A stretch of 64,000 nt of DNA from Dehalococcoidia bacterium (GCA_041300025.1 JBGLNL010000001.1:683888-747887), one strand, 5' to 3'. Positions 17,594 to 43,875 are shown, numbered from the stretch's first letter. The notes: generated by a model not told the origin, from the letters alone. Numbers and translations: made by a program.

Positions 17594-17620
17594 GGTTTGG
17601 TCTAATTAAGTTGTGCTTCA

Positions 17621-21162: not shown

Positions 21163-21419
21163 GAGGATTGAACGGGTTCTCGGCCAATCGATGGCTGCTG
21201 CGAGCTACGATCCCCGGTATGCCCGCATAGTTTCCCTGAAGTATGGATTTCAATTTTGACTAAGTTCCCAATGCCTGCTAAACTAGTTGATACTGTGACA
21301 CCAAATATGACAGGGAATATGAAACGTATCCATTGGTTAAGATCAGGCATCACGCCTGATCTATGCGTTTGCAATGTGAGAAATCTGGTTTCACTATTAA
21401 TTTCCCCCCAAATCAAAAT

Positions 21420-22754
21420 ATGACAGATGATCCAGTCCCACACCAAGGTGCTTCTGGCAAACTTACTGTGGCTCTTCAGACAGTAGGCTGCAAGCTCAAT
21501 CAGGCGGAGAGCGAAGCACTGGCCCGCAGATTTGTTGAAGCAGGATTTGATCTGGTTGCCCCTCAAGACAGCCCGGATGCCTATATCCTCAACACCTGCA
21601 CTGTAACGCACATCGCCGATCGCAAATGCCGGCAGTATCTGCGGGCGGCTCATCGTGAAAATCCACAGGCGCTAATCGTGGCGGCGGGTTGTTACGTTGA
21701 TAGAGACATCAACGATGTTAAAGTGGAAGGAGTTGAGCTCCCCGTGGGTAATTCGGAAAAGGTGCGGTTGGTTGAACTTGTCAAAAAACGGCTGGAGGCA
21801 AAAAAAGCTGCTAAAGGGAGCAACGGGCATCAAACTATTGAAAGCCAGTTTCGGACAAGGTCCATGATCAGTGTCCAGGAGGGATGCGCCCATTTCTGTT
21901 CCTATTGTATCGTTCCCCATGTCCGGGGTCGGGAAAAAAGTGTACCTGCCCGAACAATTCTTTCTGAAATAAAGGCGCGTGAAGAAGAGGGATATCGGGA
22001 AATAGTCCTTACCGGAACCAGAATCGGGATGTACTCAGGAGAAGTAAACCTCGAAGGACTCCTGAAGCACATTCTTGGAGAAACCGGGATTCCCCGGATT
22101 CGGCTCTCCTCGCTTCAACCTCGGGAACTATCTCCCTCGCTTGTGAATCTGTGGCAGGGAAACGATAGGGTATGCCGTCACATTCATCTGGCCCTTCAGA
22201 GCGGTTGCACAGCAACTCTGGAAAGGATGAGGCGGGACTATTCCATCGATGAGTACGAATCAGCGGTGAATATGATCCGTAATGCCATGCCCGATATGGC
22301 TGTCACCACCGATATCATCGTTGGCTTCCCCGGGGAAACTGAAGAGGAATTTGAGGAAAGCTTTAGCCTTTGTGAGAGGCTCGGTTTTGCCAATATGCAT
22401 ATATTCCCCTATTCTGTGCGTGCCGGGACCCCGGCGGCAAATATGTCCTGTAAAGTTCCCGATAAAATCAAAAAGGCCAGGAGCCAGCACATGCTTGATC
22501 TGGCAAAACGAAGTGCCTTTGCCTTCCGGCACAGTTTTCAAGGCAGGATTATGCCGGTGCTCTGGGAGGAACATAAAGGCAATAACATTTGGATAGGGCA
22601 TACGGGCAATTACATCAAGGTATTTGCGGCAAGCAGCGATTCCCTTAACAATCGCTTGCTGAATACGAAACTGGGCGGTGAATATCAGTCCGGTGTATAT
22701 GGTGATATTTGTGGCTCGTCGGAAATGGCCGGACTGGTAGCTAAAGGAGTGTAA
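21420..22754 (+). CDS. mtaB: MiaB-like radical SAM methylthiotransferase (MtaB type)
   Basis: N-terminal VALQTVGCKLNQAESEAL and a radical SAM CAHFCSYC motif. Start moved to ATG 21420. Confidence 0.8.
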   Translation: MTDDPVPHQGASGKLTVALQTVGCKLNQAESEALARRFVEAGFDLVAPQDSPDAYILNTCTVTHIADRKCRQYLRAAHRENPQALIVAAGCYVDRDINDVKVEGVELPVGNSEKVRLVELVKKRLEAKKAAKGSNGHQTIESQFRTRSMISVQEGCAHFCSYCIVPHVRGREKSVPARTILSEIKAREEEGYREIVLTGTRIGMYSGEVNLEGLLKHILGETGIPRIRLSSLQPRELSPSLVNLWQGNDRVCRHIHLALQSGCTATLERMRRDYSIDEYESAVNMIRNAMPDMAVTTDIIVGFPGETEEEFEESFSLCERLGFANMHIFPYSVRAGTPAANMSCKVPDKIKKARSQHMLDLAKRSAFAFRHSFQGRIMPVLWEEHKGNNIWIGHTGNYIKVFAASSDSLNNRLLNTKLGGEYQSGVYGDICGSSEMAGLVAKGV

Positions 22755-26583: not shown

Positions 26584-28107
26584 ATGAAAATCGGACCTGA
26601 CCTCCCCCGGCGAGTTGAGCGCTTCATTACAGAAAACAACCTTTTTAATTCTTCCGGAACTGTGCTGGCGGGTGTTTCCGGTGGCCCCGATTCCGTTTGC
26701 CTGCTGCATATTCTTAATTCCCTGCGCAGTTCACTTGGATTGGATTTGCATGTTGCGCATTTGAATCACCAGTTGCGCGGCGCGGAATCGGATGCCGACG
26801 CGGCCTATGTGGCGGATCTGGCTGAAAAAATGAGCCTTCCCTTTACAATAGAGTCCCGCGATGTAACAGGATATCAGTCAGAACGGGGCTGCTCGCTGGA
26901 AGAAGCCGCCCGCGAGGTTCGTTATGGCTTCTTTGCCGAGATGGCGGAAACGCTTGGCGCCAGCATGGTAGCAGTCGGGCATACCGCCGATGATCAGGCC
27001 GAAACCATCATCATGCATCTGATTCGCGGCACAGGGCTTTCCGGCCTGCAGGGGATGCGCCCGCTTTTCGAGTGGGGATTACCCGGTGGAGGATCACTAA
27101 CCGTGGTTCGGCCTTTGCTGGAGGTAACACGGCAGGAAACCGAACTTTATTGCCATGAACTGGAACTTCACCCGCGTATCGACTTATCTAATCATTCCCC
27201 TGAATACCTGCGCAACCGCATTCGCGCCGAAATCATGCCGCAGCTTGCTGAATATAATCCCAATATCGTCGAGAGCCTTAACCGCATGGCCCGTCTGATC
27301 GGAGAGGACATCGAATATCTGAATAAACAGGTAAGCCGGGTTTTCGATTCCGTGGTCGAAGAAATCCCCGAAGGTGTGTCGCTGGATAGAAAGGCTTTTG
27401 CGGAGCTTCCACCTGCTTTGAAACGGCATCTTTTGCGTACCATGCTTGGGCAGATCATCGGGAGTTTGCGGGATATCGAGATGGTTCACATCGAGACTAT
27501 TATGGAGGCAATGGCGCAACCAGCCGGAAAAGAAATATCCCTGCCCTACGGATTTAACCTGTATGGAGATTACGAAAGGAGCTTTATCACCCGCGGGGAA
27601 AACCCGCTTTTGATCCTGCCTGCTTTTGAAGGCGAAGCGTTTGTTCGGATTCCCGGCGAAACATCGGTTTCCGGATGGAAGGTCAGCGCCGAAGTTTTCC
27701 CCGGCAGGCCAAAAGCGATCAAACAAGGGGATTTCGTGGCCTTCTTCGATATGGACCTTACCGGCGGCGAACTGATCGTTCGATCGCGAAAAGATGGTGA
27801 CCGTTTCCAGCCGCTCGGGATGGACGACTCCAAAAAACTGCAGGATTTCATGGTTGATGCCAAAATCCCTCGCATGTGGAGGGACAACGTGCCTCTGGTT
27901 TGTTCCGGTGATCGCATCATCTGGGTGGTGGGCTGGCGGATCGACCATCTCACCAGAGTGACCCAGGCCTCTCTCGATCCTGCCGATCGTCAAAAGGGAT
28001 ACCCCTGCTTTCCTAGCCAACTCGGATTTGCTGATGAGAAGGCTTTCTCGGACCTGTTTCAACTGGTTGGTTTTCAAAGCCGTTCCTCACGCACTCTAGT
28101 GGAATGA
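26584..28107 (+). CDS. tilS: tRNA(Ile)-lysidine synthase, with a non-native 3' tail
   Basis: PP-loop VSGGPDSVCLL and a TilS_C region ...GDRFQPLGMDDSKKLQDFMVDAKIP...IIWVVGWRI. The last ~45 codons are antisense to an XRE fragment. Confidence 0.85.
   Translation: MKIGPDLPRRVERFITENNLFNSSGTVLAGVSGGPDSVCLLHILNSLRSSLGLDLHVAHLNHQLRGAESDADAAYVADLAEKMSLPFTIESRDVTGYQSERGCSLEEAAREVRYGFFAEMAETLGASMVAVGHTADDQAETIIMHLIRGTGLSGLQGMRPLFEWGLPGGGSLTVVRPLLEVTRQETELYCHELELHPRIDLSNHSPEYLRNRIRAEIMPQLAEYNPNIVESLNRMARLIGEDIEYLNKQVSRVFDSVVEEIPEGVSLDRKAFAELPPALKRHLLRTMLGQIIGSLRDIEMVHIETIMEAMAQPAGKEISLPYGFNLYGDYERSFITRGENPLLILPAFEGEAFVRIPGETSVSGWKVSAEVFPGRPKAIKQGDFVAFFDMDLTGGELIVRSRKDGDRFQPLGMDDSKKLQDFMVDAKIPRMWRDNVPLVCSGDRIIWVVGWRIDHLTRVTQASLDPADRQKGYPCFPSQLGFADEKAFSDLFQLVGFQSRSSRTLVE
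27964..28077 (-). pseudogene. XRE-family HTH repressor, N-terminal ~38-aa fragment
   Basis: MKTNQLKQVRESLLISKSELARKAGVSLLTIGRIERG heads the 297-aa antisense ORF. HTH-like sequence stops where conserved tilS sequence begins. A very AT-rich putative promoter region lies at 28110-28200. Confidence 0.45.
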
Positions 28108-28286: not shown

Positions 28287-28320
28287 AAAAAGGGCTCGCC
28301 GTTTTGGAAGCCCTTTTTTT
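28287..28320. terminator. Bidirectional hairpin terminator abutting the tRNA-Ala 3' fragment
   Basis: aaaaAAGGGCT-12nt-AGCCCTTttttt, with A-runs and T-runs on both sides. Confidence 0.5.
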
Positions 28321-28366
28321 GGTGGAGCTGGACGGGATCGAACCGACGGCCTCATGAATGCCATTC
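28316..28366. repeat. att-type direct repeat, left copy (orphan 3' half of tRNA-Ala)
   Basis: tttttggtggagctggacgggatcgaaccgacggcctcatgaatgccattc is identical to 36395-36445. It covers tRNA positions ~30-76 only. Confidence 0.9.
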
Positions 28367-28484: not shown

Positions 28485-28596
28485 GTAGGAGGGCGATATA
28501 CTTCGATGAGCAACGCTTGATGAAGTAGTAGGGCCAGTAGGAAGGAGTAGTAGGACGGGTATACTATGATACTCGGAGGTAGGAGATCGAAGTAGG
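28485..28596 (+). repeat. Cluster of six same-strand GTAGG(A/G) motifs in a C-poor tract
   Basis: gtaggag, gtagggc, gtaggaa, gtaggac, gtaggag and gtagggt within ~110 bp, flanked by acgggtaccgatact / acgggtatactatgatact. About 120-230 bp inside the left att repeat. Confidence 0.45.
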
Positions 28597-29170
28597 GTAC
28601 TAACACGCAAACTCAGAAAATCGACATTCAAATAGCTGCTAATCACTGAAACGCTGATCCAGACACGACCCCAATCCCAGGGGGCACTAAAACGGGCTTT
28701 TTCCCTATGCATTCAGAGAGTGCACAGAAGTTTCCTGACCTTTATACCTTTAGTCGGAGTTCTTCACTTGTACCGAAAAAAACTCATTCGCGCCGTTCCG
28801 CTGGCCTGGACTCTTGATATAATCGGATCAGGTCATCAAAATTCGGCTTGATCGATTGGAATAAGTTGTTCGGTGGATATAACCCTGAATGGACATTTGT
28901 TATAAATTTGAATGCGTTAGCATATCTGTATCCGACTATTTGTTGACATACAAGAGGCTTTTTCCTATTCTTGACCTGCCAAAAATCGAGCTATTATCAA
29001 ATTCCCCTCTACCTGGCTTGTCAAAAAGCAAGTTCTTGGTGCTCCAATCGAGGCTAGCGAGATCCAGTTGGTTGAAAAGTCAAGCTGGAAAGTTATCCGA
29101 CCGTCAGCAACGGGTTTTGCATCTATGCGGGTAATTGTATGGGTGAAGCGTAAACAGTGAGGCAGCTAGT

Positions 29171-31477
29171 ATGACGTCTATTATTAAGTATTATGAGGGG
29201 ATCGACTCGGTTGCCGTAATCGGCAACTACTTACCCCGCCAGTGCGGTATTGCAACATTCACTACCGATCTTGTTGAGGCCTTATCGGAAGAAGCGCCCG
29301 ACATAAACTGCTGGGCGGTTGCCATCAATGACAAACCCGAGGGATATGCATATCCTGAAAAAGTGCGGTTTGAGATCAACCAGAACAACCTCGCAGATTA
29401 CAGTGTCGCATCGGAGTTTCTCAATATCAGCCAAGTTGATATTGTCTGCGTGCAGCATGAATTCGGTCTTTTCGGCGGCCCTGCCGGCAGCCATCTGCTG
29501 AAACTTCTTGGAGAGATTCGCATGCCGGTCGTGACAACGCTGCATACGGTTCTGAGAGATCCCGCCCCGGAATATCGTGAAGTCATGTGCAAGCTGTCTG
29601 ATCTGTCCGACAAACTGATCGTGATGAGCCGGAAGGCCTTTGATTTCCTCAAAGATATCTATTCCGTTCCGGAGGAGAAAATTGCCTTTATCCATCACGG
29701 CATTCCGGATACGCCTTTTATTGATTCCAGCTTCAACAAAGATAAGTTCGGTGTTGAAGGCAAAAAGGTGCTGCTCACATTCGGACTGCTTTCCCCCAAT
29801 AAGGGCATTGAAAATGTGCTGCGGGCGCTTCCGTCCGTCACCAGAAAACACCCTGATGTTACCTATATTATCCTGGGAGCAACACATCCGCATATTTTGA
29901 AAGCGCATGGCGAGCAATACCGTATCAGCCTACAGCAGCTCGTGCGCAAACTCAATATCAGCGGTCATGTCATTTTTCAAAACCGATTTGTCGAACTGAA
30001 AGAATTATGTGAGTTTCTCGGCATCGCTGATATTTATGTAACCCCCTATCTTGAAGAAGCCCAGATTACTTCCGGGACGCTCGCCTATGCCATGGGAACT
30101 GGCAAAGCCGTCATTTCAACCCCATACTGGTATGCGACCGAGATGCTTGCCGAAGGGCGGGGAAGAATTGTTCCATTCAACAACCCTGATGCCATGGCGG
30201 AACAAATCATCGACCTTTTGGACAACGATGTCACCCGGCATGCGATACGCAAAAAAGCCTATACATTTTGTCGGGAGGCGATCTGGAAGGAGGTATCCCG
30301 AAGATATCTCGAGGTTTTCAGCGAGGTTCAGCATCATCGTTCCCTGCACCCCCGACCCCGACATTTATATGTTGAAAACATCAAATCCATCACAAATTTC
30401 GATCTCCCGGAAATGAAGCTTGATCACATGAAGACCCTTACCGATGATACGGGCATTTTGCAGCATGCCGCCCATATCGTCCCCGATCGCATCCATGGCT
30501 ACTGCACCGATGATAATGCGAGAGCTCTGCTGGTTGCTGCCATGGGCCGGAAATACCTGTCTACGGGCGACAGGTCCCTTGATTCCCTTAGCAGTCATTA
30601 TCTCAGCTTTCTACTGTATGCCTTCAATGTCGAAACCGGGCGATTTCGTAATTTTATGACCTATGCCCGGCAATGGACTGAGGAGGTGGGATCGGAGGAT
30701 GCTCATGGTAGAGCGCTCTGGGGCCTTGGCAAGTCTGTGATGTTTTTTGACAATCCCGGAGAGGTGGCAACGAGCGCGACGCTCTTCAACAAGGCGCTGA
30801 AGGCTGTCGAGCACTTTCATTCGCCCCGAGCCATCGCTTTTGCCCTGGTGGGCATTCATGCCTACCTGGATAAATTTTCAGGCGACAGTGAAGTGCGAAG
30901 GATTCGAGAAATCCTCGCAGATAGGCTTTTCAATCAGTTCAAGAACAATGCATCAAACAGCTGGCCCTGGCTTGAAAGCACTTTAAACTATGCCAACGGC
31001 AAGCTTCCCCATGCCCTGCTCCTATCCGGCCAATCGATGCAGCGCAGCGATATGATCGATATGGGACTCAGATCGCTTGAGTGGCTGCTCACCATCCAGA
31101 CCGAAAAAGGCCACTTTGTGCCGATCGGTAATAAGGGATGGTATGAAAAAGGCGGCCCCAAAGCCCGTTTCGACCAGCAGCCCGTCGATGCTAATGCTAT
31201 GATCGAAGCCTGTATCGAAGCCTTTAACATCATCCGAGACAAAACATGGATAGACAACGCGGTCATGTGCTTTAACTGGTTTCTCGGAGACAACGACCTG
31301 AATATGCCGCTCTATGATCCCAAGACCGGCGGCTGCCGCGACGGGCTGATGGCTGATGGCATCAACCAGAATGAAGGCGCCGAGTCGTGCCTTGCATGGC
31401 TACTTTCGCTTATGACATTGCAAAAGCTTTATGCTGATGAGATTTTGAAACAGCCATCGTCCCAATCAGCCGATTAA
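29171..31477 (+). CDS. Two-domain protein: N-terminal GT4 glycosyltransferase plus a C-terminal ~370-aa six-hairpin-glycosidase-like domain
   Basis: 768 aa with no signal peptide. GT4 pattern in residues ~1-390 (..VTPYLEEAQITSGTLAYAMGTGKAVISTP..). The C-terminal half (HGYCTDDNARALL..HGRALWGLG) looks like an alpha/alpha toroid (weak call). Confidence 0.75.
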   Translation: MTSIIKYYEGIDSVAVIGNYLPRQCGIATFTTDLVEALSEEAPDINCWAVAINDKPEGYAYPEKVRFEINQNNLADYSVASEFLNISQVDIVCVQHEFGLFGGPAGSHLLKLLGEIRMPVVTTLHTVLRDPAPEYREVMCKLSDLSDKLIVMSRKAFDFLKDIYSVPEEKIAFIHHGIPDTPFIDSSFNKDKFGVEGKKVLLTFGLLSPNKGIENVLRALPSVTRKHPDVTYIILGATHPHILKAHGEQYRISLQQLVRKLNISGHVIFQNRFVELKELCEFLGIADIYVTPYLEEAQITSGTLAYAMGTGKAVISTPYWYATEMLAEGRGRIVPFNNPDAMAEQIIDLLDNDVTRHAIRKKAYTFCREAIWKEVSRRYLEVFSEVQHHRSLHPRPRHLYVENIKSITNFDLPEMKLDHMKTLTDDTGILQHAAHIVPDRIHGYCTDDNARALLVAAMGRKYLSTGDRSLDSLSSHYLSFLLYAFNVETGRFRNFMTYARQWTEEVGSEDAHGRALWGLGKSVMFFDNPGEVATSATLFNKALKAVEHFHSPRAIAFALVGIHAYLDKFSGDSEVRRIREILADRLFNQFKNNASNSWPWLESTLNYANGKLPHALLLSGQSMQRSDMIDMGLRSLEWLLTIQTEKGHFVPIGNKGWYEKGGPKARFDQQPVDANAMIEACIEAFNIIRDKTWIDNAVMCFNWFLGDNDLNMPLYDPKTGGCRDGLMADGINQNEGAESCLAWLLSLMTLQKLYADEILKQPSSQSAD

Positions 31478-31491
31478 GTAAAGGATTAGCT

Positions 31492-32541
31492 ATGCGCATT
31501 GCGATGCTCTCGCCGATTGCCTGGCGCACGCCGCCGCGACACTATGGCCCGTGGGAAAGCGTGGTCTCCCTTTTGACCGAGGGGTTGGTATCGCGAGGCT
31601 ATAATGTTACCCTTTTTGCAACCGGTGATTCGGAAACAAGCGGCAAGCTGCATACCATTTGTGCGCGGGGCTATGAAGAAGACCGCTCCATTATTCCAAA
31701 AGTATGGGAGTGCCTGCACATTTCGGAACTCTTTGAGCATGCTCAAGATTTTGATATTATACATAACAATTTTGATTATTTGCCCTTGACCTATACCGGC
31801 CTTATCACCACCCCGGTCGTTACAACCATTCACGGCTTTTCATCGCCGGGCATTTTGCCGGTTTACAAAAAATATAACCGCAAAGTGTTCTATGTTTCCA
31901 TTAGCGATGCCGACCGGTCCCCGGATCTTGACTATATCAAAACCATCCATCACGGCATAGATATAAAGCAGTTTGATTTTCAGCCTGAACCGGAGGATTA
32001 TCTGCTTTTTTTCGGGCGCATCCACCATGACAAGGGTGCCAGAGAGGCCCTTGAAATTGCCAGGGCCTGCAATAAGAAGCTGATATTGGCGGGAATCATC
32101 CAGGATGAAGTCTACTATCACCAGTACGTCGAACCGCACCTGGACAACCATAATGCGGTCTATGTCGGCAGCGTCGGGCCGGTTCAGCGCAACCAGTTGC
32201 TAGGCAAGGCATACGCGCTTTTGCATCCCATAAATTTTAATGAGCCTTTCGGACTGTCTATTATAGAGTCCATGGCTTGCGGTACCCCGGCGATCGCGTT
32301 TAACAAGGGGAGTATGCCAGAGTTGATCGAGCATGGCAAAAACGGCTTCCTGGTTTCGGGTTGCGAAGAGGCTGTTGAACATGTGGCAAGGATAAAAAAT
32401 ATAAATAGATTAGACTGTCGTCAGACGGTCGAAGCCCGCTTCACCGTAGACAGTATGGTCGAAAAATATGTAGACGTTTACACAGAGGTGCATGAAAAAG
32501 GACATAAGGATTTTGCTGACAGCCAAGCCAACAAAAATTGA
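31492..32541 (+). CDS. GT4 family glycosyltransferase
   Basis: MRIAMLSPIAWRTPP...PFGLSIIESMACGTPAIAFNKGSMPELIEHGKNGFLV is the canonical GT4 E-x7-E region. Confidence 0.85.
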   Translation: MRIAMLSPIAWRTPPRHYGPWESVVSLLTEGLVSRGYNVTLFATGDSETSGKLHTICARGYEEDRSIIPKVWECLHISELFEHAQDFDIIHNNFDYLPLTYTGLITTPVVTTIHGFSSPGILPVYKKYNRKVFYVSISDADRSPDLDYIKTIHHGIDIKQFDFQPEPEDYLLFFGRIHHDKGAREALEIARACNKKLILAGIIQDEVYYHQYVEPHLDNHNAVYVGSVGPVQRNQLLGKAYALLHPINFNEPFGLSIIESMACGTPAIAFNKGSMPELIEHGKNGFLVSGCEEAVEHVARIKNINRLDCRQTVEARFTVDSMVEKYVDVYTEVHEKGHKDFADSQANKN

Positions 32542-32550
32542 ACATCGATA

Positions 32551-33510
32551 ATGACAGGGTTGCATGGTATGAATAGAAAAACCCCTTTTATAAAGCGATA
32601 TGACGGGAACCCCATCCTTACCCGGGATGACGTGCCCTATCCGGTAGCCACTGTCCACAATGCCGGGGTTATTAAACACAATGACCGGTATATAATGCTT
32701 TTCAGGTCGCACAGACACAACGGTCGCTGTGTAATCGGCCGGGCTGAAAGCGCAGACGGTTTTTCCTTCACGGTCCATCCCGAACCCTTCCTTGAACCGG
32801 CGACAGACAACGTTTTTGGGGAATATGAGGAGTTCGGAGTCGAGGACCTCCGCATAAACCCCGTGGAGGGCGAATATCTTCTTACCTACAGCGCATACTC
32901 GCGGCATGGAGTGCGCATCGCACTTGCCCGGACAAAGGACCTCAAAAGCATTGAGCGCGTCGCGCTGATCACCCAGTCCGACCTTCGCAATGTGGTTATT
33001 TTCCCTGTGAAATTCCAGGGCAGATACGCGCGCCTGGACCGGCCGCATTCCGAAATGTCACCCTGGTCTATCTGGATTTCCTATTCCCCCGACCTTGTTC
33101 ACTGGGGCGATTCACGGGTGATTATGAAGCCGGTTCCCTATCACTGGGATGAAATGAAAATCGGGCCCGGCGCACCGCCCTTCAAAACCGACAAGGGCTG
33201 GCTTCATATTTACCATGGAGTCTTTAAAACGATGGCTGGGGCGGTGTATCGCCTTGGCGCGGCCCTGCACAACCTTAATGATCCGGCAAAAATCATCGGC
33301 GTTTCTGATCAGTGGATACTGCAGCCCGAGGATGCCTGGGAAGTGAGCGGCTACGTGCCCAATGTTGTTTTTACATGCGGCGCTGTTCCTGAAGACGACG
33401 GTACGGTAAAAATATACTGGGGCGGCGCTGATACCGTCATGTGCGCCGGCACGGCGGTAATTGATGATCTGGTACAGCTTTGTCTGTCGGCTTCCCGGCC
33501 GCCACTGTAG
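32551..33510 (+). CDS. GH130 family protein (beta-mannoside phosphorylase/hydrolase-like, DUF377)
   Basis: ...NPILTRDDVPYPVATVHNAGVIKHNDRYIMLFR...PNVVFTCGAV..DGTVKIYWGGADTVMC matches the GH130 five-bladed propeller pattern. No signal peptide. Confidence 0.85.
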   Translation: MTGLHGMNRKTPFIKRYDGNPILTRDDVPYPVATVHNAGVIKHNDRYIMLFRSHRHNGRCVIGRAESADGFSFTVHPEPFLEPATDNVFGEYEEFGVEDLRINPVEGEYLLTYSAYSRHGVRIALARTKDLKSIERVALITQSDLRNVVIFPVKFQGRYARLDRPHSEMSPWSIWISYSPDLVHWGDSRVIMKPVPYHWDEMKIGPGAPPFKTDKGWLHIYHGVFKTMAGAVYRLGAALHNLNDPAKIIGVSDQWILQPEDAWEVSGYVPNVVFTCGAVPEDDGTVKIYWGGADTVMCAGTAVIDDLVQLCLSASRPPL

Positions 33511-33677
33511 CTTATTATCAAATATCACAACGGGCTTATTGCAAATCAGGAAATCAATAATTTCATAAACTGATCGAAATGACTTTTAGAGGATATGCTG
33601 GGATTGAAAGTCCCCCTGCTAAACAGACTTTCGATGCAGAGCACACAATATCAAACTACCTTTAAGGATACAGTGAT

Positions 33678-35156
33678 ATGGACGCAAAAAAGTATCTAAA
33701 CCCGAAAGTTAAAAGGATAAAGACAACCATTCTGGGGGACACCTCACGCGTTATAACACGCCTTCATATTCCCAACGGGGCGCATCGCATACTTAAAATC
33801 ATTCAACGCATAATAGATTTGCCTGAGGAGACAGCCGAAAAGCTTCTTTCACAAATAATGTTTGATTTTTCAAAGCGGCACAAAGACATCAGACGCATTT
33901 TTGAGCGTCACCTAAATGAGGTAAAAGATTATGTTCCTCGGGACGCCGTGCTAAGTGAGACCAAAATGGCTCTCATCGGGGCCTATTTTACCATGGAGTA
34001 CTCCGTTGAATCGGCTGCCCTTTTTAACCCTTCAATTGTCCTCCACCCTGATCAAAGCCATCTGGACAAAGGCAGCTTGCGTTTTATCATGAGCCTGCGG
34101 GCAATCGGCGAAGGCCATGTTTCCTCCCTTGTATTTCGAAGTGGCGTCCTTGACGAGCACAATACGTTTATCTTCGACCCGGTCAGCGATTATATCGAAA
34201 GGCCGGACGTCCGCCCAAATCCGATTTACGACCGGCATTTGTTCCAGCTGAAGCTCAACGAAATGGGGGCCTGCAATGAGGTAACAGCTCATCTTCTTGG
34301 CCAGTTACCAGATGATTTCAGCTATAATGAATTAAAAGAAAAAATTGGAGCGCTTCGTGCAAAAACCGTTTTCTCTGAGGAGCGCCAAAACGGAACTTTC
34401 GAGATCATTTACTGGCTTGCCAACTCCAATTATGAGATGAATTTCCGACCCGATCACCGAATATCCGAACGGGTTATCTTTCCCGTTTCGAAAAACGAAA
34501 GCAGAGGCATTGAAGACGCCCGGTTCGTGCAATTTTTTGATGACACCGGCGAAGTGACCTATTATGCGACCTATACGGCTTATAACGGCCTTAGAATCCT
34601 GCCGCAGCTGATAGAAACAAAAGATTTTACCAGATTTAAAATTATAACCCTCAACGGCAAAGCAGTAAAAAACAAGGGCATGGCTCTTTTTCCCCGCAAA
34701 ATTGACGGCAGCTACGTTATGCTTTCCCGACAGGACGGTGAAAATAATCATATCATGTTCTCAGACAATATCCATTTCTGGCAGGAGTCCAAAATCATCC
34801 AGGAGCCCACACGTCCCTGGGAATTTATTCAGATCGGCAACTGCGGCTCACCCCTGGAAACCGATCAAGGCTGGATCGTACTCACCCACGGTGTCGGGCC
34901 GATGCGTCAGTATTGCATCGGCGCCATGCTACTTGATCTTGAAAATCCGGGAAAAATCATTGCCCGCCTGGAAGAGCCGTTACTTACCCCGCATGAGGAA
35001 GAGCGCGACGGGTATGTTCCCAATGTCGTTTATACCTGCGGCGCAATTTTTCATAATACCGACCTCGTCATTCCCTATGGCATATCTGATATTAAATCCG
35101 GCATTGCAACCGTTGGAGTGAGGGAATTAATTAACTGCATGCACGCGGTAGGTTAA
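33678..35156 (+). CDS. Long GH130-like protein with a ~250-aa N-terminal extension of unknown function
   Basis: The C-terminal half (EDARFVQF...YATYTAYNG...GYVPNVVYTCGAI..LVIPYGISD) is GH130-like. I do not recognise the N-terminal half. Confidence 0.75.
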   Translation: MDAKKYLNPKVKRIKTTILGDTSRVITRLHIPNGAHRILKIIQRIIDLPEETAEKLLSQIMFDFSKRHKDIRRIFERHLNEVKDYVPRDAVLSETKMALIGAYFTMEYSVESAALFNPSIVLHPDQSHLDKGSLRFIMSLRAIGEGHVSSLVFRSGVLDEHNTFIFDPVSDYIERPDVRPNPIYDRHLFQLKLNEMGACNEVTAHLLGQLPDDFSYNELKEKIGALRAKTVFSEERQNGTFEIIYWLANSNYEMNFRPDHRISERVIFPVSKNESRGIEDARFVQFFDDTGEVTYYATYTAYNGLRILPQLIETKDFTRFKIITLNGKAVKNKGMALFPRKIDGSYVMLSRQDGENNHIMFSDNIHFWQESKIIQEPTRPWEFIQIGNCGSPLETDQGWIVLTHGVGPMRQYCIGAMLLDLENPGKIIARLEEPLLTPHEEERDGYVPNVVYTCGAIFHNTDLVIPYGISDIKSGIATVGVRELINCMHAVG

Positions 35157-35339
35157 TGGTTCCAGGATCGGCGTTTATGAAGCCCATCTGATAGCTTTTT
35201 TTATATTACTTTATAGAAACCATTTTTCACCGAGAGATGTGAATTTGGAATTTTCCATCTCATTCAATACTGTGATACCTGCTATTGATGTGAGCTCTAG
35301 TGGGAGTTCAGATATAGACAGGGTCTGTGAAGAGGAAGC

Positions 35340-35500
35340 TGGTCTTCAGAGCGATAAACCCTGAAATCTGCGCCCACAACATCCGGCACACGGGTTTTTC
35401 ATGGACTTTCGACCGAGGGCTTCCCAGTACTTCAATCTATGGAGGTCCCAAACTTTCAAGCTTGCAGTTGCTAATCGATCGTTTGCAACACCACAGAACA
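35340..35500 (+). pseudogene. Tyrosine recombinase C-terminal fragment (box II region)
   Basis: ICAHNIRHTGFSWTFDRGLP....GGPKLSSLQLLIDRLQHH resembles H-x-L-R-H-T...LGHSSLQTTxRYxH. There is no upstream catalytic core. Confidence 0.4.
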
Positions 35501-35529
35501 AGGGCTGAGGGGAGAAGTCGTGCCCAAGA

Positions 35530-36364
35530 ATGCCCAAATGCGCCAAAAGGGGTATCCGTAAGGACGCCCAAGGCCCAGCTAGTCTTCATCGCGGTCGCTC
35601 CTAAAATCATCCCCCTCAGGATATGTCCCCACGGACTCCTCGTACTTTCTTGCCTTCCTCGTCTCGTCTATGGAATGAGGCGTGTCTATTTGCGTCGGGA
35701 TAGATGCCCCTTGCGCTATTGTGACAGGCTACGCCTGCTGGAAAGGGAGTTCGGAGACAGGCACCTCTGTGAGATCTCTCAAAAGGAGATCCTTGAACAC
35801 CGAAACAGGGTCGCCTCGGAGACTTCAAATCTCACCTCCAACAGAATTTTCATTCTCAAGCAAATTTTCAAGCAGGGAATGGAAATGAACGCGATCAAGA
35901 ACGATCCGGTTGCTGCCATGTCATACCTCAGTGAGAAGAAGCATGTCAGGAACGAGTTCCTCATGCCTCCGGAATCGGATCACCTACTTGAGGCGTGCCA
36001 GAAACTGCGATCAAGAGATTTGTTACCGGCGGCGATCTGTCTGGGAGCTGAACATGGAGCTTCGAAGCAGGAAATCCTGGATCTGAAATGGACCGACATC
36101 GATTTCGAGTTCGAGGGGAGCGCCCGCATCAAAGCCTCGGATATCTTACCCCGGCTGAGGTCCACTATGCTCACTGAGAATCCATATTCAAGGCAATGGG
36201 CATCCACCTTATTTTTCCAATTTTGTGGTCTTGACAATGGGGTCAACCTCAAGGATCTCGCCAGGTTCTATGCGAACTCGAAAGAAACGAAAGAATCTAG
36301 TAAGCTATACAGAAGCCACACAGAGGTCAAAAAGGGGTCTCTGAACAGAAAAAGAGCCGATTAG
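35530..36364 (+). pseudogene. Tyrosine integrase, frameshifted and internally degraded
   Basis: ATG 35530 gives MPKCAKRGIRKDAQG (typical integrase N-terminus), then a stop at 35602. A second frame continues with SAM-like-domain sequence and LDLKWTDIDFE (box I region, Arg lost). The C-terminus is degenerate. It ends 35 nt from the tRNA-Ala 3' end. Confidence 0.6.
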
Positions 36365-36394: not shown

Positions 36395-36445
36395 TTTTTG
36401 GTGGAGCTGGACGGGATCGAACCGACGGCCTCATGAATGCCATTC
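36395..36445. repeat. att-type direct repeat, right copy (inside intact tRNA-Ala)
   Basis: Identical to 28316-28366. Confidence 0.9.
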
Positions 36446-36474
36446 ATGCGCTCTCCCAACTGAGCTACAGCCCC
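36399..36474 (-). tRNA. tRNA-Ala(GGC), CCA encoded
   Basis: The reverse complement is GGGGCTGTAGCTCAGTTGGGAGAGCGCATGAATGGCATTCATGAGGCCGTCGGTTCGATCCCGTCCAGCTCCACCA. It has the G3:U70 identity pair and anticodon loop AU-GGC-AU. Confidence 0.95.
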
Positions 36475-36475
36475 C

Positions 36476-36581
36476 CGCAGAGCGCCATCTGCTGTATGTA
36501 GCTTGCACTCGTGCGCGGGATCATCTTCTCGTAACCGGCGTTGAGCCAGCATCAGAGTTCCTGGACGATCTGGATAGATAG
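36476..36581 (+). pseudogene. UvrD/PcrA-like superfamily-1 helicase, C-terminal ~33-aa remnant
   Basis: The frame reads ..ERHLLYVACTRARDHLLVTGVEPASEFLDDLDR*, the helicase motif VI/terminal region. The 5' side is cut off at the tRNA. Confidence 0.5.
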
Positions 36582-36596
36582 GTGCTAAGGGGAAAT

Positions 36597-37370
36597 ATGT
36601 ACAAACTCGCAATTGATAAACTGACGTTTGTGAATAATTTACTGGAATGGTATAATAAGTCTCTTTCTAATCCCAATTCGAAAGTGCTGCCGCATCCCGA
36701 GTATGGTCGCTGGAAGAAGTGGAGCGATGACCGTATTTGGTGTTCTGTATTTTTCAGCATCGGAGTCAAAGGAGGGTCAAGAGCGGCACGGGATTATTTG
36801 GAGTCAATCGAAAAAGGATTGGAAGAATTTGAATTACCGATTGCCAGTCTTACCCCGCTTGAGTTTGGTGATAGAATGCGGAAAATATGGCGATTTGGAC
36901 GTGGATACAATCGTTCAGGAAAGGCGCTGGGGAGATTCTTTAGCAAAGATGAGAATTTCGGAAGAAAAAATAGCTTTGAAAAAAGCATAGCTGAATCTTT
37001 TGGAGTATTAGAAAAACACGGTTTTGCGAAATGGTTTCGGGAAATTTCCGAGTATAATGACGATCGTAAAAAAGCTCATTTCATGGAAGAATTGCCGGGT
37101 GTAGGTCTTAAAGTTTCCCGTGATTTCTTGAATGATATTGGGATGACGAATTCACTAATTGCCCTGGATATTCATGTTCTCGCCGAAATGAGAGACACTT
37201 GGAAATGGGCCGTACCGCCGACTACGCCCAATGATAGAACGATCTATGAAGCGATTGAAGATGGCGTCAGGGCAGTTGCAGAGTCAATTGGAGTGACAGT
37301 TCTTGAAATTGATAAGGCAATATACTTTTCGCGCATGACTGCTGAATTCAGACTAAATAGAAATGACTAA
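36597..37370 (+). CDS. HhH DNA-glycosylase-like protein (archaeal OGG / OGG-fold family)
   Basis: ELPGVGLKVSRDFLNDIGMTNSLIALDIHV resembles the Ogg2-type helix-hairpin-helix block (GIGxKxASxFLRxxG...AIxDxHI). The rest is unrecognised. Confidence 0.55.
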   Translation: MYKLAIDKLTFVNNLLEWYNKSLSNPNSKVLPHPEYGRWKKWSDDRIWCSVFFSIGVKGGSRAARDYLESIEKGLEEFELPIASLTPLEFGDRMRKIWRFGRGYNRSGKALGRFFSKDENFGRKNSFEKSIAESFGVLEKHGFAKWFREISEYNDDRKKAHFMEELPGVGLKVSRDFLNDIGMTNSLIALDIHVLAEMRDTWKWAVPPTTPNDRTIYEAIEDGVRAVAESIGVTVLEIDKAIYFSRMTAEFRLNRND

Positions 37371-37694
37371 ATCAGTATGGGTGTTTCATATTTGTGACCA
37401 TCCTGTGTCCACACCCCGCCAAAAGAGGCGGAAACAGATACAACCAGACAAAAGAATACAAAAACAAAATTTTATCCTTAATTCTTGAGTGTCAACGTAA
37501 TACGCTGGTATGCAATGGCTTGAGGGTAATGTGGTCGGAGAATCCCAGCGCCTCCGCTTTATTGCGCACCGAACTTTATTATCATTTCATTATCGACAAT
37601 TATTCATTTTCTTCTCAAAGTCTAATTTCAAACTGACTCGCAGCCATTCAATATAAGTCATTGCAAAAAACTGAAATTCAACATATTTTTTAAT

Positions 37695-39125
37695 ATGGGC
37701 AGAACGATATTAGACGTTGACCCGCTGATACTTAGAGACCGCCTGCATGCGCTCTTCTTGTGCAGCCAATCGGTTATGAATGTAGCGGTCGAAATGCTTC
37801 TGAAAAGTCACCGGTTCAAAATCAAATTGGAAATAGCTGGCGCAACCAATCCGGGCTATTCACTCTTTATAAAAATAGCCAATAAGTTGAAAGTTGATTA
37901 CATTACTCCGGAAATTCCAGAAGAATTAAGGCCTTTTCCATTGAAATGGATATCAGATAAAAGTACCGCAAATTTAAGAACCTGGATACCGGAGATGAAA
38001 GATAGAGAGGGAGATTATCATATTCTCCTCCCTTTCTATTTACGATATCATCTCGATAAACTGCGGGAACGAGAACCCAATTTCCCCATGCCACAAATCG
38101 ATAACTTGTATTTATTATCCCGCTGGGAAGAATGTTTTGTATACCAGGTTCCATTATCAATAACGGCATTAAAGGATCTTCTTTCCTATGAAAGATTCCC
38201 ATATCTTTCAATCCCATCACCCCTTTTCAGTTTTATCGGGACAGGTTTTGTGGAGCAGCGACTTTTTCGATTGGACGATCTTTCGCAATTATATCTTGGT
38301 TTTTGCAGCGGGCCAGAAAAATGGAACCTTGTCAACGGGGTTGAAATAGAGAAGCACCCCTACAACATGGCATTGAGAAATAAACTCAGTGCGATGACCT
38401 TGCGATCAGGAAATCGCAGGACACCCTCATATCCGGTATTGGTGCGGCATTTTACTTGGGATTTGGAGCAGCTGGGCTTGATTATTGAAAATGCTTCCGT
38501 TCTAAACATGATAAATAAGCATTTGCCGAAGGAAAGAGCGGACAGAATCAGAAACTGCCTTTTATTTAGATTACGTGGCTTATCAGAAGATGAAATCAAA
38601 GGTGAATTGGGTTTTGGGAATCAGGAAGAATACTATGAATGGCAAGTCGCTAACAGGATCAATATCATCTCTAAAGATTACCGTGATCCGTATGATGCCT
38701 GGCAGAATGCCTGTGAGTTTTTTGAAATTGAACCAAATATCGAAATACTGGACAATGTTCAAATCTCGGCAGCTACAAAAGATGAACCGAACGCAAGTGA
38801 TTCCGGGCCGACCGGGATTCAACTCCCTCCGATTACAATCGCCAGGCACTCAGACGGTTTTGCTTCAATCGTAACATCTAATGGCAAATCTATATCATTA
38901 ACCGGGAAACAAGCTCATTTAATATCCAAACTTCACGAAGCATATGTTAACGGCACACCCGAGCTATTACAGGCTCGTTTTATAAACGAAATTTATGGTG
39001 AGGTAAAAGAAAACCGGCTCCAGAAGCTTTTCGGGAACAACGACGCTTGGAACGAGCTTATTGAAAAAGGAAGAAGAAAGGGTCTTATACGTTTGAAAGC
39101 CATAAAACCCGATAATTCGGATTAA
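37695..39125 (+). CDS. Hypothetical 476-aa protein with a possible sigma-70 region-4/LuxR-like HTH
   Basis: The long ORF looks coding by eye. ADRIRNCLLFRLRGLSEDEIKGELGF is HTH-like. No catalytic motif recognised. Confidence 0.5.
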   Translation: MGRTILDVDPLILRDRLHALFLCSQSVMNVAVEMLLKSHRFKIKLEIAGATNPGYSLFIKIANKLKVDYITPEIPEELRPFPLKWISDKSTANLRTWIPEMKDREGDYHILLPFYLRYHLDKLREREPNFPMPQIDNLYLLSRWEECFVYQVPLSITALKDLLSYERFPYLSIPSPLFSFIGTGFVEQRLFRLDDLSQLYLGFCSGPEKWNLVNGVEIEKHPYNMALRNKLSAMTLRSGNRRTPSYPVLVRHFTWDLEQLGLIIENASVLNMINKHLPKERADRIRNCLLFRLRGLSEDEIKGELGFGNQEEYYEWQVANRINIISKDYRDPYDAWQNACEFFEIEPNIEILDNVQISAATKDEPNASDSGPTGIQLPPITIARHSDGFASIVTSNGKSISLTGKQAHLISKLHEAYVNGTPELLQARFINEIYGEVKENRLQKLFGNNDAWNELIEKGRRKGLIRLKAIKPDNSD

Positions 39126-39248
39126 TCTTAAAATTTCTGTGGGTGACAGCAATTCACCCAGAAAACTCCCCCAAAAAAACGTCGATTTCGCCTAACCACC
39201 CAGGTATACACCCACGTAGCTCCCCACTTGGTGTATTAGTCTCCTTGC

Positions 39249-39506
39249 ATGAAAAAGGGACGATTATTAGATGATCGTTTAAGGCGCAGTAATAATGGCG
39301 AGCAAGCTATTTCATCCCCTAATTGCGCCGGATTGGAACATCAAGCTGTGAAGGAGCCCTCATCGCCGGGGGATAATTTCACATTTAAAACCATTGAACT
39401 CGCCCCGCTGGACGACCAAACACTCGATCTTGAGAACTGGTTAGCCGGTCTTTTTGTCGAATATTGGCTGTCAAAAGGGCGAGCAAGTCAAAAGGAGATA
39501 GAATAA
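39249..39506 (+). CDS. Hypothetical 85-aa protein
   Basis: The ORF abuts the next gene (stop TAA 39504-39506, ATG 39507). No motif recognised. Confidence 0.35.
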   Translation: MKKGRLLDDRLRRSNNGEQAISSPNCAGLEHQAVKEPSSPGDNFTFKTIELAPLDDQTLDLENWLAGLFVEYWLSKGRASQKEIE

Positions 39507-39740
39507 ATGAACGCAGAAGTCTATAAAACATCTGACATCGCGTTGGCGGCTTATTTGTCGATGCAGGGATTTTCTATACGGGGGGTGGCATTTAATGGCG
39601 ACCGAAGATCTGTCTTTCAGTTCGAAGATGAACCGGGTTGCCAGGAACATGTCCTGAGATTTTTCAACCGCAATACAATGGTTGAACCAATCGCTTTTCT
39701 TGACCATGTCAAGAGCCTGAAGGCGATGATTAAGCAGTAA
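39507..39740 (+). CDS. DUF5659 domain protein
   Basis: YKTSDIALAAYLSMQGFSI...DRRSVFQFED......F....MVEP..F...VKSLKAMI matches the DUF5659 pattern common in phages and mobile elements. Confidence 0.6.
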   Translation: MNAEVYKTSDIALAAYLSMQGFSIRGVAFNGDRRSVFQFEDEPGCQEHVLRFFNRNTMVEPIAFLDHVKSLKAMIKQ

Positions 39741-39779
39741 ATAATAATCTGATGAGATGTGATGATATGAAAATTCGGT

Positions 39780-40526
39780 ATGAAAACAAGTGATAAAATT
39801 GTCGGGGGACTGGGAGCATCTTCGGAGCTGTCCAAAAAGCTACATCACCCGGGACCGGATATCAGGCCATGTGTGGCACAGATGCTTGAATCCTCATATA
39901 CAAAGGGGGATTATCCCAATCGGAATGCCGCGGCTCATATAATCGCTTGTGAACTTAGGCGAATCGGGTGTTCTCATGATGAGGTCCTGCAGCGAATAAT
40001 AGCATGGAATGATGGAAATACCGCGCCATTAAGTATATCTGAATATTCCAAGGCGGTTCGCAGTGCATTTGCCAAAGACTATAATTATTCCTGTTATCAT
40101 CATTTCTTAGAACCGACTTGCATTGGACCCGACGCATGTCCGTTTTCATCAAGAGTTAAATCGAATCAGAAATATTATAACAATAGAAAATTCATTCGAT
40201 ACCGCTGGCCAGAATTACTTCCTAATGTAGCCATATTGATATACTACATAGCATTAATTGAGCTCGAAAGAATACGGCAGGTCGGGGCAGGGGGAATGAT
40301 ATACGCCAGTTATCGGGAGATCGCCAAATTATGCGGGGTAAATCCCGGATCAATTATGAGAAATCTGGCTATACTGCAAAGCCATGGCCTGATTGAATTG
40401 AAAATTGGAACCCCGCGAAAGTGGGAGAGAAGCGCAACCGAGATAAGGCGCGTTATTCCCATTCCGAGACCATCACAGAATTTATTGAGGAAACTATATG
40501 ATGAAAAACCATACACAGAAAAGTAA
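39780..40526 (+). CDS. PriCT-like domain plus winged-HTH protein (putative replication/regulatory protein)
   Basis: NRNAAAHIIACELRRIGCSHDEVLQRIIAWNDGNTAPLSISEYSKAVRSAFAKDYNYSC resembles primase C-terminal (PriCT) domains. C-terminal YREIAKLCGVNPGSIMRNLAILQSHGLIE is wHTH-like. Confidence 0.45.
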   Translation: MKTSDKIVGGLGASSELSKKLHHPGPDIRPCVAQMLESSYTKGDYPNRNAAAHIIACELRRIGCSHDEVLQRIIAWNDGNTAPLSISEYSKAVRSAFAKDYNYSCYHHFLEPTCIGPDACPFSSRVKSNQKYYNNRKFIRYRWPELLPNVAILIYYIALIELERIRQVGAGGMIYASYREIAKLCGVNPGSIMRNLAILQSHGLIELKIGTPRKWERSATEIRRVIPIPRPSQNLLRKLYDEKPYTEK

Positions 40527-40582
40527 GTTTTCCACACACATTAAGACAGTATCCAATATTTATATAAAGGGGATTATTTCTT

Positions 40583-41098
40583 ATGTCTGTTAATCATTCA
40601 AAAGTAATGCCTTTGAATTTAAAAGAGCTGTTCGGAAGAGAATATAAAATTGAAATAGACGAATCTGCGAATTGCCCTGGTGAGAGTAAAAGCGATCCGT
40701 GGTATTATCGGGTCGCCTGTAAATACGGCCATATATATCCCTATTCCGACAAAAGGCTCGGATTTTATTGCGAAAGCGGAAATATCCGAAACCGTCTTCG
40801 TCAGGAGCATCCTGAGATTGATGTCTTTAATTGGAGTGATGACGGCGGGGCAGTCTTCCTGTTTCCCGTTGGACTTTTTAAACTAATATCCGGCTACGCC
40901 AAACCGAGGCAAAAACGGAGACTATCCCAGGAGCATCGCCGAAGACTGGAATTAGCGGGACAGCGATACAAATTTAAACCTTTAAAACATGGGTCTGAGA
41001 GCGTGAAATCGACTCAAATTTCAACGAAAGGAGTCGGGGTAGTAATAGGGGGGAGATGGTCAGGCCAGAGAAACGCGCTTGGAGATTCAAAAAGCTAA
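40583..41098 (+). CDS. Hypothetical 171-aa protein (mobile-element associated)
   Basis: DPWYYRVACKYGHIYPYSD...PRQKRRLSQEHRRRLE pattern. No function known to me. Confidence 0.4.
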   Translation: MSVNHSKVMPLNLKELFGREYKIEIDESANCPGESKSDPWYYRVACKYGHIYPYSDKRLGFYCESGNIRNRLRQEHPEIDVFNWSDDGGAVFLFPVGLFKLISGYAKPRQKRRLSQEHRRRLELAGQRYKFKPLKHGSESVKSTQISTKGVGVVIGGRWSGQRNALGDSKS

Positions 41099-41288
41099 TT
41101 TGAGGGATTAAAATGATGTTGAAATTCATTAGGCATATTCACCTGGTAAATTATCCGCCAGCGAGTGACAACAATTGCCATTTAGGATTCGCTCGTAAGG
41201 CACCATCCGATAGAATGTTATCGAATAAACGTATCACCAGGGAATTGGTGATAACCCTATTGATTTCGAATTGTATAGCAGGGGGTAT

Positions 41289-41870
41289 ATGGGCATGCCA
41301 GTAGGCAAAGGGGTCTGGTATCCCAAGACAAGAACGAGCGAGTGCCTCCAGATTGATATGGCATATCTGAACAAGCATTTTGACCTCGAAAAAGAACATT
41401 CGGCTACTATGTCGTGGACAGGCAGTTTTGGCAAAAGGGACCGCGTTTGTATTCGTATTGAACCGCCCGGGTTTATCAGGCTTATCTACACTATCACCAA
41501 GAAGTCAGGCGAAAAAATTGATATGAATTACCGAGTTTATATGGATATGACTGAGTGTAATTTAGGTGGAATACGATACTGGTTTGTCTGCCCAATATGT
41601 CAAAGAAGATGTCGCGTAATATATCTCCCTCCCGGCGGCCATCGCTTTACGTGTCGTATCTGTAACAACCTGACTTATGCCAGCACTCAGGAAGGCTATC
41701 CGAGATGGAAGGCGATACAAGAAGCGACCTTCATGTTGCCAAAATGGGAAAGACAGTATTTCAGGGCCAGGTCAGATAAGAAACGCCAGCGATTGCTAAA
41801 AAAGATGAGACGGGTTGAATCAGGTTTGAAAGCTTTTATTGCCTGGAGCAAACGAGTTCTTAGAGAATGA
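41289..41870 (+). CDS. Hypothetical zinc-ribbon protein
   Basis: GGIRYWFVCPICQRRCRVIYLPPGGHRFTCRICNNLTYAS (CPxC...CRxC). Family members are often found beside recombinases. Start choice (41289 versus TTG 41271) is uncertain. Confidence 0.45.
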   Translation: MGMPVGKGVWYPKTRTSECLQIDMAYLNKHFDLEKEHSATMSWTGSFGKRDRVCIRIEPPGFIRLIYTITKKSGEKIDMNYRVYMDMTECNLGGIRYWFVCPICQRRCRVIYLPPGGHRFTCRICNNLTYASTQEGYPRWKAIQEATFMLPKWERQYFRARSDKKRQRLLKKMRRVESGLKAFIAWSKRVLRE

Positions 41871-42139
41871 TAGAACATATGTTCCTATCGATACATTGAC
41901 AGAAATTAGGCATAATGAATTATGAATATTTTATATGTATGTATGCAGGTATTTAATGTTTTTGGTTGACAAAAGAGATAAAAATGGCGATATTAATAAT
42001 GCTAAAGTAATCAAATGTCTGGCTATTTTTGTGTACGAAAGTTTAGCCCGAGCCGGTTTTCTTGTAGCTGGACTGATTACTTTAGCAATAATCTCCGGTG
42101 AAACTGGCTTGGGCTTTATATTTAAGAGGCGGTGATGAG

Positions 42140-43870: not shown

Positions 43871-43875
43871 ATTAA

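Follow-up and report, generated by a model that had tools for sequence, protein, structure and literature searches.

How a Dehalococcoidia chromosome came by two glycosyltransferases and two GH130 proteins, and what these might make together, is the question raised by positions 29171-35156 of a 64,000-nucleotide (nt) stretch of Dehalococcoidia bacterium (GCA_041300025.1, JBGLNL010000001.1:683888-747887). We refer to the whole stretch as the window and to the four genes, listed here, as the cassette.

29171-31477, plus strand: GT4L, 768 amino acids (aa), a GT4 glycosyltransferase with an extra C-terminal domain
31492-32541, plus strand: GT4S, 349 aa, a GT4 glycosyltransferase
32551-33510, plus strand: GH130S, 319 aa, a GH130 protein of canonical length
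33678-35156, plus strand: GH130L, 492 aa, a long GH130 protein

We hold it to be an even call that these genes constitute a single mobile operon for a cytoplasmic glycoside cycle, delivered by a tRNA-Ala element that has since decayed. An initial annotation of this DNA had placed four co-oriented, tightly spaced open reading frames (ORFs) here, and all four were found at exactly these positions, separated by 14, 9 and 167 nt. Pfam confirmed their identities as a GT4 with an extra domain, a GT4, a GH130 and a long GH130. No hydrophobic N-terminus, signal peptide or transmembrane segment was detected in any of the four proteins, so that hydropathy bears out the earlier call that signal peptides are absent. 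Since no N-terminus is hydrophobic and no 19-residue window exceeds a Kyte-Doolittle value of 1.5 (zero such windows in the four proteins), we take all four proteins to be cytoplasmic.

Predicted activities of the four proteins

All characterised GH130 enzymes act on β-mannosides (PMC8950772). In the phosphorylases of the family three basic residues bind phosphate, with Glu found there in hydrolases (PMC4599007). GH130S matched the Pfam family PF04041 (Glyco_hydro_130) over residues 27-311 with 186.9 bits against a cut-off of 26, and its matches in the PDB were TM1225 (1e-56) and Teth514_1788 (2e-49). It has E98, the catalytic D99, R146, R164 and H222, of which the last four are invariant in 17 orthologues and align with the corresponding positions of TM1225 and Teth514_1788. 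GH130L has E279, the catalytic D280, K333, R351 and H404, all at least 90% conserved across 62 family members. Because the catalytic Asp and the basic phosphate-binding residues are kept in both, the residues by which the initial annotation had proposed to tell phosphorylases from hydrolases, both proteins look like phosphorylases rather than hydrolases. As for linkage, a Lys (K199 of BT3780) marks β-1,2 specificity in GH130 (PMC4599007), as does a Glu preceding the catalytic Asp, where β-1,4 enzymes have Tyr (PMC12814180). GH130L, with K333 at the position of BT3780 K199, thus carries the full β-1,2-phosphorylase residue pattern, to which its N117 and R141 also belong. The markers of GH130S are mixed, with Glu (E98) before the catalytic Asp and Arg at the Lys position.

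The initial annotation had described a ~250-aa N-terminal extension in GH130L that it could not place. The Pfam Glyco_hydro_130 match (118 bits) covers residues 263-489 only, and hhalign against GH130S aligned only residues 268-484. An AlphaFold2 (AF2) model built from a diverse alignment was confident (pLDDT 94) and did not support a separate extension; it shows propeller strands at 12-29 and 105-180, helices at about 35-103 and 186-249, and conserved N117 and R141. Because the predicted structure, the secondary structure and these two motifs place the beginning of the propeller here, the ~250 aa would be the first part of the propeller with two helical insertions, not a separable domain. Foldseek ranked Teth514_1788 (E 1.6e-21, TMt 0.78) and Teth514_1789 (E about 1e-21) at the top, in an alignment spanning ~390 columns against targets of ~300 residues; the match to the Leishmania structure 2b4w was weak (E 4e-7, TM 0.38). 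Both the five-bladed propeller fold and the Pfam match expected of a GH130 are therefore found in GH130L. The long architecture is that of a large family, with 4651 representative matches, many of them full-length at 35-56% identity. Matches of ~2.2 kb had suggested an intein or intron in GH130L; tblastn showed these to be an artefact of the first search, which had joined cross-matches to the upstream GH130S. A link to mannosylglucosylglycerate through a GH130-like MggA was also dropped: the published account gives MggA as a GT4, and a link between GH130 and mannosylglucosylglycerate was not found in the literature.

GT4S scored above the gathering thresholds of Glyco_transf_4 and Glycos_transf_1 in Pfam and aligned end to end with TeGSS (tll1591; PDB 7fg9) at 44% identity over 332 aligned positions (E 2.3e-79). 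TeGSS transfers glucose from UDP-glucose (UDP-Glc) to sucrose or glucosylsucrose in α-1,2 linkage, giving a cytoplasmic stress oligosaccharide, and its residues Y18, R179 and K184 contact UDP and the acceptor (PMC9909042). GT4S keeps all three, as Y18, R176 and K181, together with the Glu of the catalytic site (E251/E259), and the W10 of this comparison is shifted by one position. This suggests that GT4S is a TeGSS-type GT4 and most likely performs α-1,2-glucosyl transfer. Since its nearest relative is an α-1,2-glucosyltransferase, a pure β-mannan is an unlikely product of the cassette.

GT4L consists of a GT-B part (aa 1-~390) and an all-helical C-terminal domain (aa ~415-768, ~355 aa) with an invariant GYCTDDNARAL motif. 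Glycos_transf_1 and Glyco_transf_4 are above gathering over residues 26-364 only, and the best PDB matches of this part, with weak resemblance, are the GDP-mannose (GDP-Man)-dependent PimA and PimB', consistent with a retaining GT-B glycosyltransferase. The sole significant match of the C-terminal domain was PDB 7tem (YPO2471), an uncharacterised Yersinia structure (E 4e-13). An α/α-toroid had been proposed for this domain. The AF2 model is all helical but poor (pLDDT 51), and a Foldseek search with this low-confidence model gave no significant match; those it did give, with E no lower than 0.04, were to (α/α)6 proteins such as AGE, GH76 and mannose isomerase. A six-hairpin-like domain is thus possible but unproven. 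The adjacent D447-D448 of the motif may be akin to the adjacent Asp pair of GH76. By hhalign the domain showed no relation to a GH100-like protein encoded beside some relatives of the cassette.

Spread of the cassette across phyla

GH130L has relatives in at least 589 species-level genomes. GH130L and GT4L each have at least 8000 candidate protein clusters at 90% identity, and the best 120 of each are 80-99% identical. We surveyed the loci of the best 80 of the at least 589 stretches, taking one genome per GTDB species, and cite individual loci by number (L001 and so on). Amino-acid identity in these 80 is 70-99%. Their carriers are Desulfobacterales, Desulfatiglandales, other Thermodesulfobacteriota, Zixibacteria, Anaerolineae, Ignavibacteria and KSB1, and include the isolate Desulfocarbo indianensis (L032), the ORM2a chromosome and a 3.7-Mb Zixibacteria chromosome. 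Fifty-five loci from Desulfobacterota, Zixibacteria, Chloroflexota, Ignavibacteria and KSB1 had enough upstream DNA to be informative, and the order GT4L-GT4S-GH130S-GH130L is kept in 46 of them, so the four genes are co-conserved elsewhere. The other nine, mostly from Anaerolineae, lack GH130S or both GH130S and GT4S; only GT4L and GH130L are found in the Anaerolineae loci L074 and L077. Because nothing but GH130S, or GH130S with GT4S, is dropped in these loci, GT4L and GH130L are the minimal pair.

This conservation was compared with that of the host gene TilS. TilS proteins are 53-78% identical within their own class, whereas the cassette is 70-99% identical across phyla. The cassette is thus far better conserved across phyla than vertical descent predicts, which points to strong selection and frequent transfer. 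A block corresponding to about 28994-35285 of the window recurs in L085 and L087 at 95-97% nt identity between unrelated flanks; in L085 the gene after it encodes an unrelated Phage_integrase, different from the integrase of the window, and in L087 it lies downstream of a tRNA-Phe. That the cassette moves as a unit, as initially proposed, is borne out by these two copies. Since gene order is kept at high identity and the same block occurs in unrelated contexts, the cassette is best read as a horizontally spreading operon. GH130S of L085 is only 85% identical, compared to 95% for the neighbouring genes, which suggests recombination between cassettes.

Some related loci carry additional genes for mannose-phosphate metabolism. 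PMM is inserted after GT4L in L001, L004 and L007, a ManC β-helix fragment is present in L004, and in L085 GT4S is fused to a mannose-6-phosphate-isomerase (PMI) cupin domain to give a protein of 450 aa (insertions and fusion at L001 6360-7841, L004 5844-7632 and L085 12321-13673). These genes point to mannose-1-phosphate (Man-1-P) or GDP-Man as the probable currency of the pathway. In six loci an accessory module of SIS, a PIG-L deacetylase, a third GT4 and a GH100/GDE_C-like gene lies inside or just after the cassette; it stands between GH130S and GH130L in L025, L028, L050, L058 and L061, and at 17476-20746 in L087, where the SIS gene was not seen. The module hints at a version of the pathway that may be aminosugar-decorated or invertase-linked. 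No recurrent transporter, flippase or secreted glycosidase was found in the flanks of the 80 loci, and export partners of the glycosyltransferases, which the initial annotation had named as a sign of a cell-envelope role, were seen in none of them.

Other neighbours recur as well. FtsH paralogues flank or trail the cassette in nine loci of Desulfatiglandales-type genomes (for L001, at 1723-3489 and 11537-13441). A B12-binding radical-SAM and DUF4070 protein is encoded upstream of GT4L in 15 loci (e.g. L014 810-2291) and also in the window at 49640-51082 on the minus strand, 14 kb from the cassette; its recurrence may be chance, as it has many paralogues. In L087 the GH130S-GH130L intergenic region and the start of GH130L are duplicated (14340-14630 and 21187-21477, 94%) beside a second long GH130 paralogue, and L069 has a divergent long GH130 (47%; 11503-12984) in tail-to-tail orientation with GH130L.

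The tRNA-Ala island and its surroundings

The cassette of the window lies in an island bounded by copies of the end of a tRNA gene. Its features, other than the four genes, are as follows.

28316-28366, minus strand: distal att-like direct repeat, where the tRNA-Ala 3' part recurs in displaced position, with a terminator-like hairpin on its outer side
28943-28971, plus strand: sigma-70-like promoter candidate (TTGACA, 17 nt, TATTCT; 10/12 consensus), a pattern match only
28984-29170, plus strand: conserved 5' leader of ~190 nt, 5' of GT4L, in the closest cassette lineage only
35157-35289, plus strand: conserved 3' trailer that travels with the cassette; homology with L085, L087, L004 and L006 ends at 35283-35289
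35327-36364, plus strand: truncated tyrosine-integrase remnant that keeps no more than the core-binding part and the beginning of the catalytic domain
36395-36445, minus strand: proximal att-like repeat, inside the tRNA-Ala(ggc) entry 36395-36474
36399-36474, minus strand: tRNA-Ala(ggc) as called by ARAGORN (Rfam tRNA 61.5 bits), containing the proximal att-like repeat

The two repeats are identical at 51 of 51 nt and correspond to the 3' 47 nt of tRNA-Ala plus four T. Integration into a tRNA gene classically leaves behind direct repeats of the 3' part of the tRNA. The ~8.1 kb between the two repeats comprise ~800 nt in which no ORF is credible, the four cassette genes and ORF 35327-36364, which is the only ORF above 300 aa between the repeats besides the four genes. 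This ORF matched the integrase profile PHROG_1 (E 2.7e-13) at profile positions 190-324 of 611 only and NCBIfam XerA at E 0.009, had no match in Pfam, and gave none by tblastn against plasmids. Because only this part of the profile was matched and Pfam returned nothing, the ORF is read as a truncated integrase, and no functional integrase was found on the island. Since the remaining ORF is truncated, the four genes are the sole intact genes between the repeats, just as initially claimed, and the repeats and the integrase remnant together uphold the framing of the locus as a tRNA-Ala island. The locus would thus be a relic integrative island, the decayed remains of a tyrosine-integrase element inserted at tRNA-Ala. 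With tRNA-targeting islands it shares the repeats of the tRNA 3' half on either side of the cargo and the tRNA-proximal position of a tyrosine integrase; it differs from them in its size of only ~8.1 kb, its truncated integrase and the loss of any excisionase or mobility gene.

The G+C content is unchanged across the island. Relatives of TilS identify the host as a member of the Dehalococcoidia, and the closest relatives of the cassette are in Desulfobacterota-type metagenome-assembled genomes (MAGs). An assembly chimera is unlikely because the proteins to the left of the cassette, those of the cassette and those to its right all occur on one NCBI contig of 1,771,430 nt. A conspecific contig, L090, is 99.4% identical to the window over 7.2 kb; its breakpoint with the window (27963/27964) lies 45 nt before the ancestral TilS stop, and L090 ends 900 nt later. 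In the window, the TilS ORF (26584-28107) has other codons in place of the last 14 found in the relatives L090 and L092, and exceeds theirs in length by 33 codons. SnoaL, DNA_alkylation and further genes come after TilS in L090 and L092; the window lacks them, and the tRNA-Ala locus therefore sits within a larger strain-variable region. A scan of metagenomes for the exact pattern of the empty site gave 0 matches, and exact look-ups of four window proteins in the search for that site gave no match.

The leader is 92-99% identical at the nt level in L005, L085, L087 and L004 despite differing DNA further upstream. It is absent from most other cassette lineages and confined to one sublineage. No Rfam family reached threshold in it; the nearest was group-II-D1D4-6 at 29076-29192, sub-threshold (43.4 bits, gathering score 49, E 9e-11) and spanning model positions 1-92 only. 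The leader showed no excess fold stability (z-score 0.46) and no covariation or compensatory changes among 6 sequences. Another lineage has a conserved small ORF (~39 aa, MGDKGK...) in its place upstream of GT4L, at 3818-3937 in L001 and in about 17 further loci.

Contig L005 (JBFZFB010000019.1, 7199 nt) is 99% identical to window positions 28559-35629 and, compared to the window, has 125 nt inserted at ~35494. It is binned in a 'Lentisphaerota' MAG, and may be either mis-binned or a copy of the island in a second host. Elsewhere in the window, a second mobile element follows tRNA-Ala at ~36500-43900, where G+C falls to 0.41-0.43; it encodes a PriCT_1 primase/HTH protein (39780-40526) and, at 42098-43837, a large serine recombinase. 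The recombinase gene overlaps at its 3' end with tRNA-Leu(caa) (43786-43871). A TPP riboswitch lies at 17497-17599 on the minus strand (70.4 bits, above the Rfam gathering score). An intergenic sequence of ~110 nt at window positions 51468-51576 recurs with 85% identity at L090 7678-7786, in unrelated places of conspecific genomes, and may be a small repeat element.

A candidate glycoside cycle and its alternatives

From these proteins we infer a synthesis-and-recycling loop for an intracellular β-mannoside, together with the donors, acceptors, linkages, flux direction and physiological role of the cycle. GT4L and GT4S, as retaining GT-B enzymes, would use nucleotide sugars to build an α-linked core, with GT4S adding α-1,2-glucose as its homologue TeGSS does, the PimA-like domain of GT4L adding an α-hexose, and the helical C-terminal domain binding or processing the product. 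Both GH130 proteins would then add β-mannose from α-mannose-1-phosphate and, in the reverse direction, remove it with phosphate, GH130L as a β-1,2-type enzyme and GH130S with a preference for another acceptor or linkage. The Man-1-P set free could enter central metabolism and glycolysis through PMM and PMI. What results would be a small oligosaccharide inside the cell, either a reserve or an osmolyte, that is re-mobilised without a cost in ATP. In its fullest form, which we put forward tentatively and as less probable than not, this would be a bacterial cycle like that of mannogen, in which a soluble α-glucoside or α-hexoside primer is extended with β-1,2-mannose drawn largely from Man-1-P by a new GH130 subfamily with helical inserts, and the product is shaped by a new helical domain fused to a GT4, the trait being spread by horizontal gene transfer through at least five phyla of anaerobic sediment bacteria.

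Several observations weigh against such a cycle or against its delivery by the tRNA-Ala element. Both GH130 proteins fall far below the cut-offs of the NCBIfam β-1,2-mannobiose phosphorylase equivalogs (NF052550 and NF050092), with 148.7 against 450 and 146.4 against 550 for GH130L, and 230.7 against 550 and 204 against 450 for GH130S; both are GH130 family members, but outside the characterised subfamilies. At the position of BT3780 K199, GH130S has R146, an Arg as in β-1,4 enzymes and not the β-1,2 Lys. The glucosyl specificity of GT4S is extrapolated from 44% identity, which does not fix the acceptor, and the C-terminal domain of GT4L has no Pfam match, even at E values up to 10. The island within the window holds no PMM, PMI or ManC gene. 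As for delivery, the divergence of L090 sets in 350 nt left of the direct repeat; no clean empty site came to light among the TilS-linked relatives, whose breakpoint is at 27963/27964 and not at the repeat.

The closest described system is the Teth514_1786-1789 cluster of Thermoanaerobacter sp. X-514 (PMC4264767), which combines a GT4, ManC and two GH130 β-1,2-mannoside phosphorylases. It shares with the cassette two GH130 proteins, a GT4 and mannose-1-phosphate metabolism, all cytoplasmic, and GH130L finds its best matches, by sequence as well as by structure, in Teth514_1788 and Teth514_1789 of this cluster. By analogy, and given the PMM, ManC and PMI genes linked in some loci, the cassette could serve salvage: imported β-mannosides would be phosphorolysed to Man-1-P and this converted to GDP-mannose, which the GT4 enzymes would use on unrelated glycans. 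The Teth514 cluster, however, has an ABC importer and a GH5 of its own, and both of its GH130 proteins are of ~300 aa. Neither the window nor the recurrent flank families of the 80 loci show such marks of Thermoanaerobacter-type salvage (an ABC importer, a secreted or GH5 glycosidase), and no ABC transporter, binding protein or secreted glycoside hydrolase was seen in the window or the clustered flanks. The strict order of four genes including two glycosyltransferases is also hard to explain if these act on unrelated targets, and salvage therefore seems unlikely. Compared to the Teth514 cluster, the cassette is without a transporter and has a GT4-helical fusion, a GT4 resembling TeGSS and a GH130 of 492 aa that contains helical inserts.

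Alternatively, the GT4 enzymes, with the GH130 proteins as weak GDP-Man-dependent β-mannosyltransferases, might make a cell-envelope component or glycoconjugate, be it a glycolipid, protein glycan or exopolysaccharide unit. Source records annotate GT4L as 'glycosyltransferase involved in cell wall biosynthesis', β-1,2 GH130 enzymes show weak glycosyltransferase activity with GDP-Man (PMC12814180), and PimA and PimB', the best PDB matches of the GT4L glycosyltransferase domain, act on lipids. Yet no conserved flippase, polymerase, priming phosphoglycosyltransferase or membrane protein is encoded nearby, GH130L has C413 where the Arg of the Teth514_1788 'YR' aligns, and the closest relative of GT4S makes a soluble cytoplasmic oligosaccharide, which leaves an envelope product improbable. 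Least probable, and quite remote, is a glucosylsucrose-like α-1,2-gluco-oligosaccharide solute with GH130 proteins that are not mannoside-directed, for although GT4S is 44% identical to TeGSS with its catalytic residues conserved, and a GH100/invertase-like gene occurs in some related loci, every characterised GH130 acts on β-mannosides (PMC8950772), both GH130 proteins retain the residues of the -1 subsite and those for phosphate, the recurring accessory genes are mannose-phosphate enzymes and no sucrose-phosphate synthase is linked.

The proposed cytoplasmic β-mannoside cycle is conceptually close to that of Leishmania mannogen (GT108), a cytoplasmic β-1,2-mannoside that is built and phosphorolysed by five-bladed propeller enzymes (PMC8950772, PMC12814180). 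The likeness lies in the concept of a cytoplasmic cycle that builds and then phosphorolyses. The cassette, in contrast, also includes Leloir GT4 enzymes. It also differs from the setting of the UDP-glucose:sucrose α-1,2-glucosyltransferases TeGSS and Alr1000 (PDB 7fg9; PMC9909042), with which GT4S aligns over its full length, in that its GT4S has GT4L and the GH130 genes as neighbours instead of a sucrose-phosphate synthase, and in that the GT4S homologue of L085 is fused to a PMI cupin. The long GH130, the GT4-helical fusion, the TeGSS-like GT4 and the lack of uptake genes together set the cassette apart from the Teth514 cluster and from mannogen, and no description of it was found in the full-text literature, of which our coverage was incomplete.

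Among anaerobic bacteria of sediments and the subsurface, the cassette is a carbohydrate operon that is very common and has so far gone unstudied. If the proposed cycle is true, it would represent a new cytoplasmic reserve or osmolyte for Desulfobacterota, Zixibacteria and Chloroflexota, and would give a function to the YPO2471-like helical domain. It would also add a new subfamily to GH130, one that may be useful in β-mannoside synthesis.

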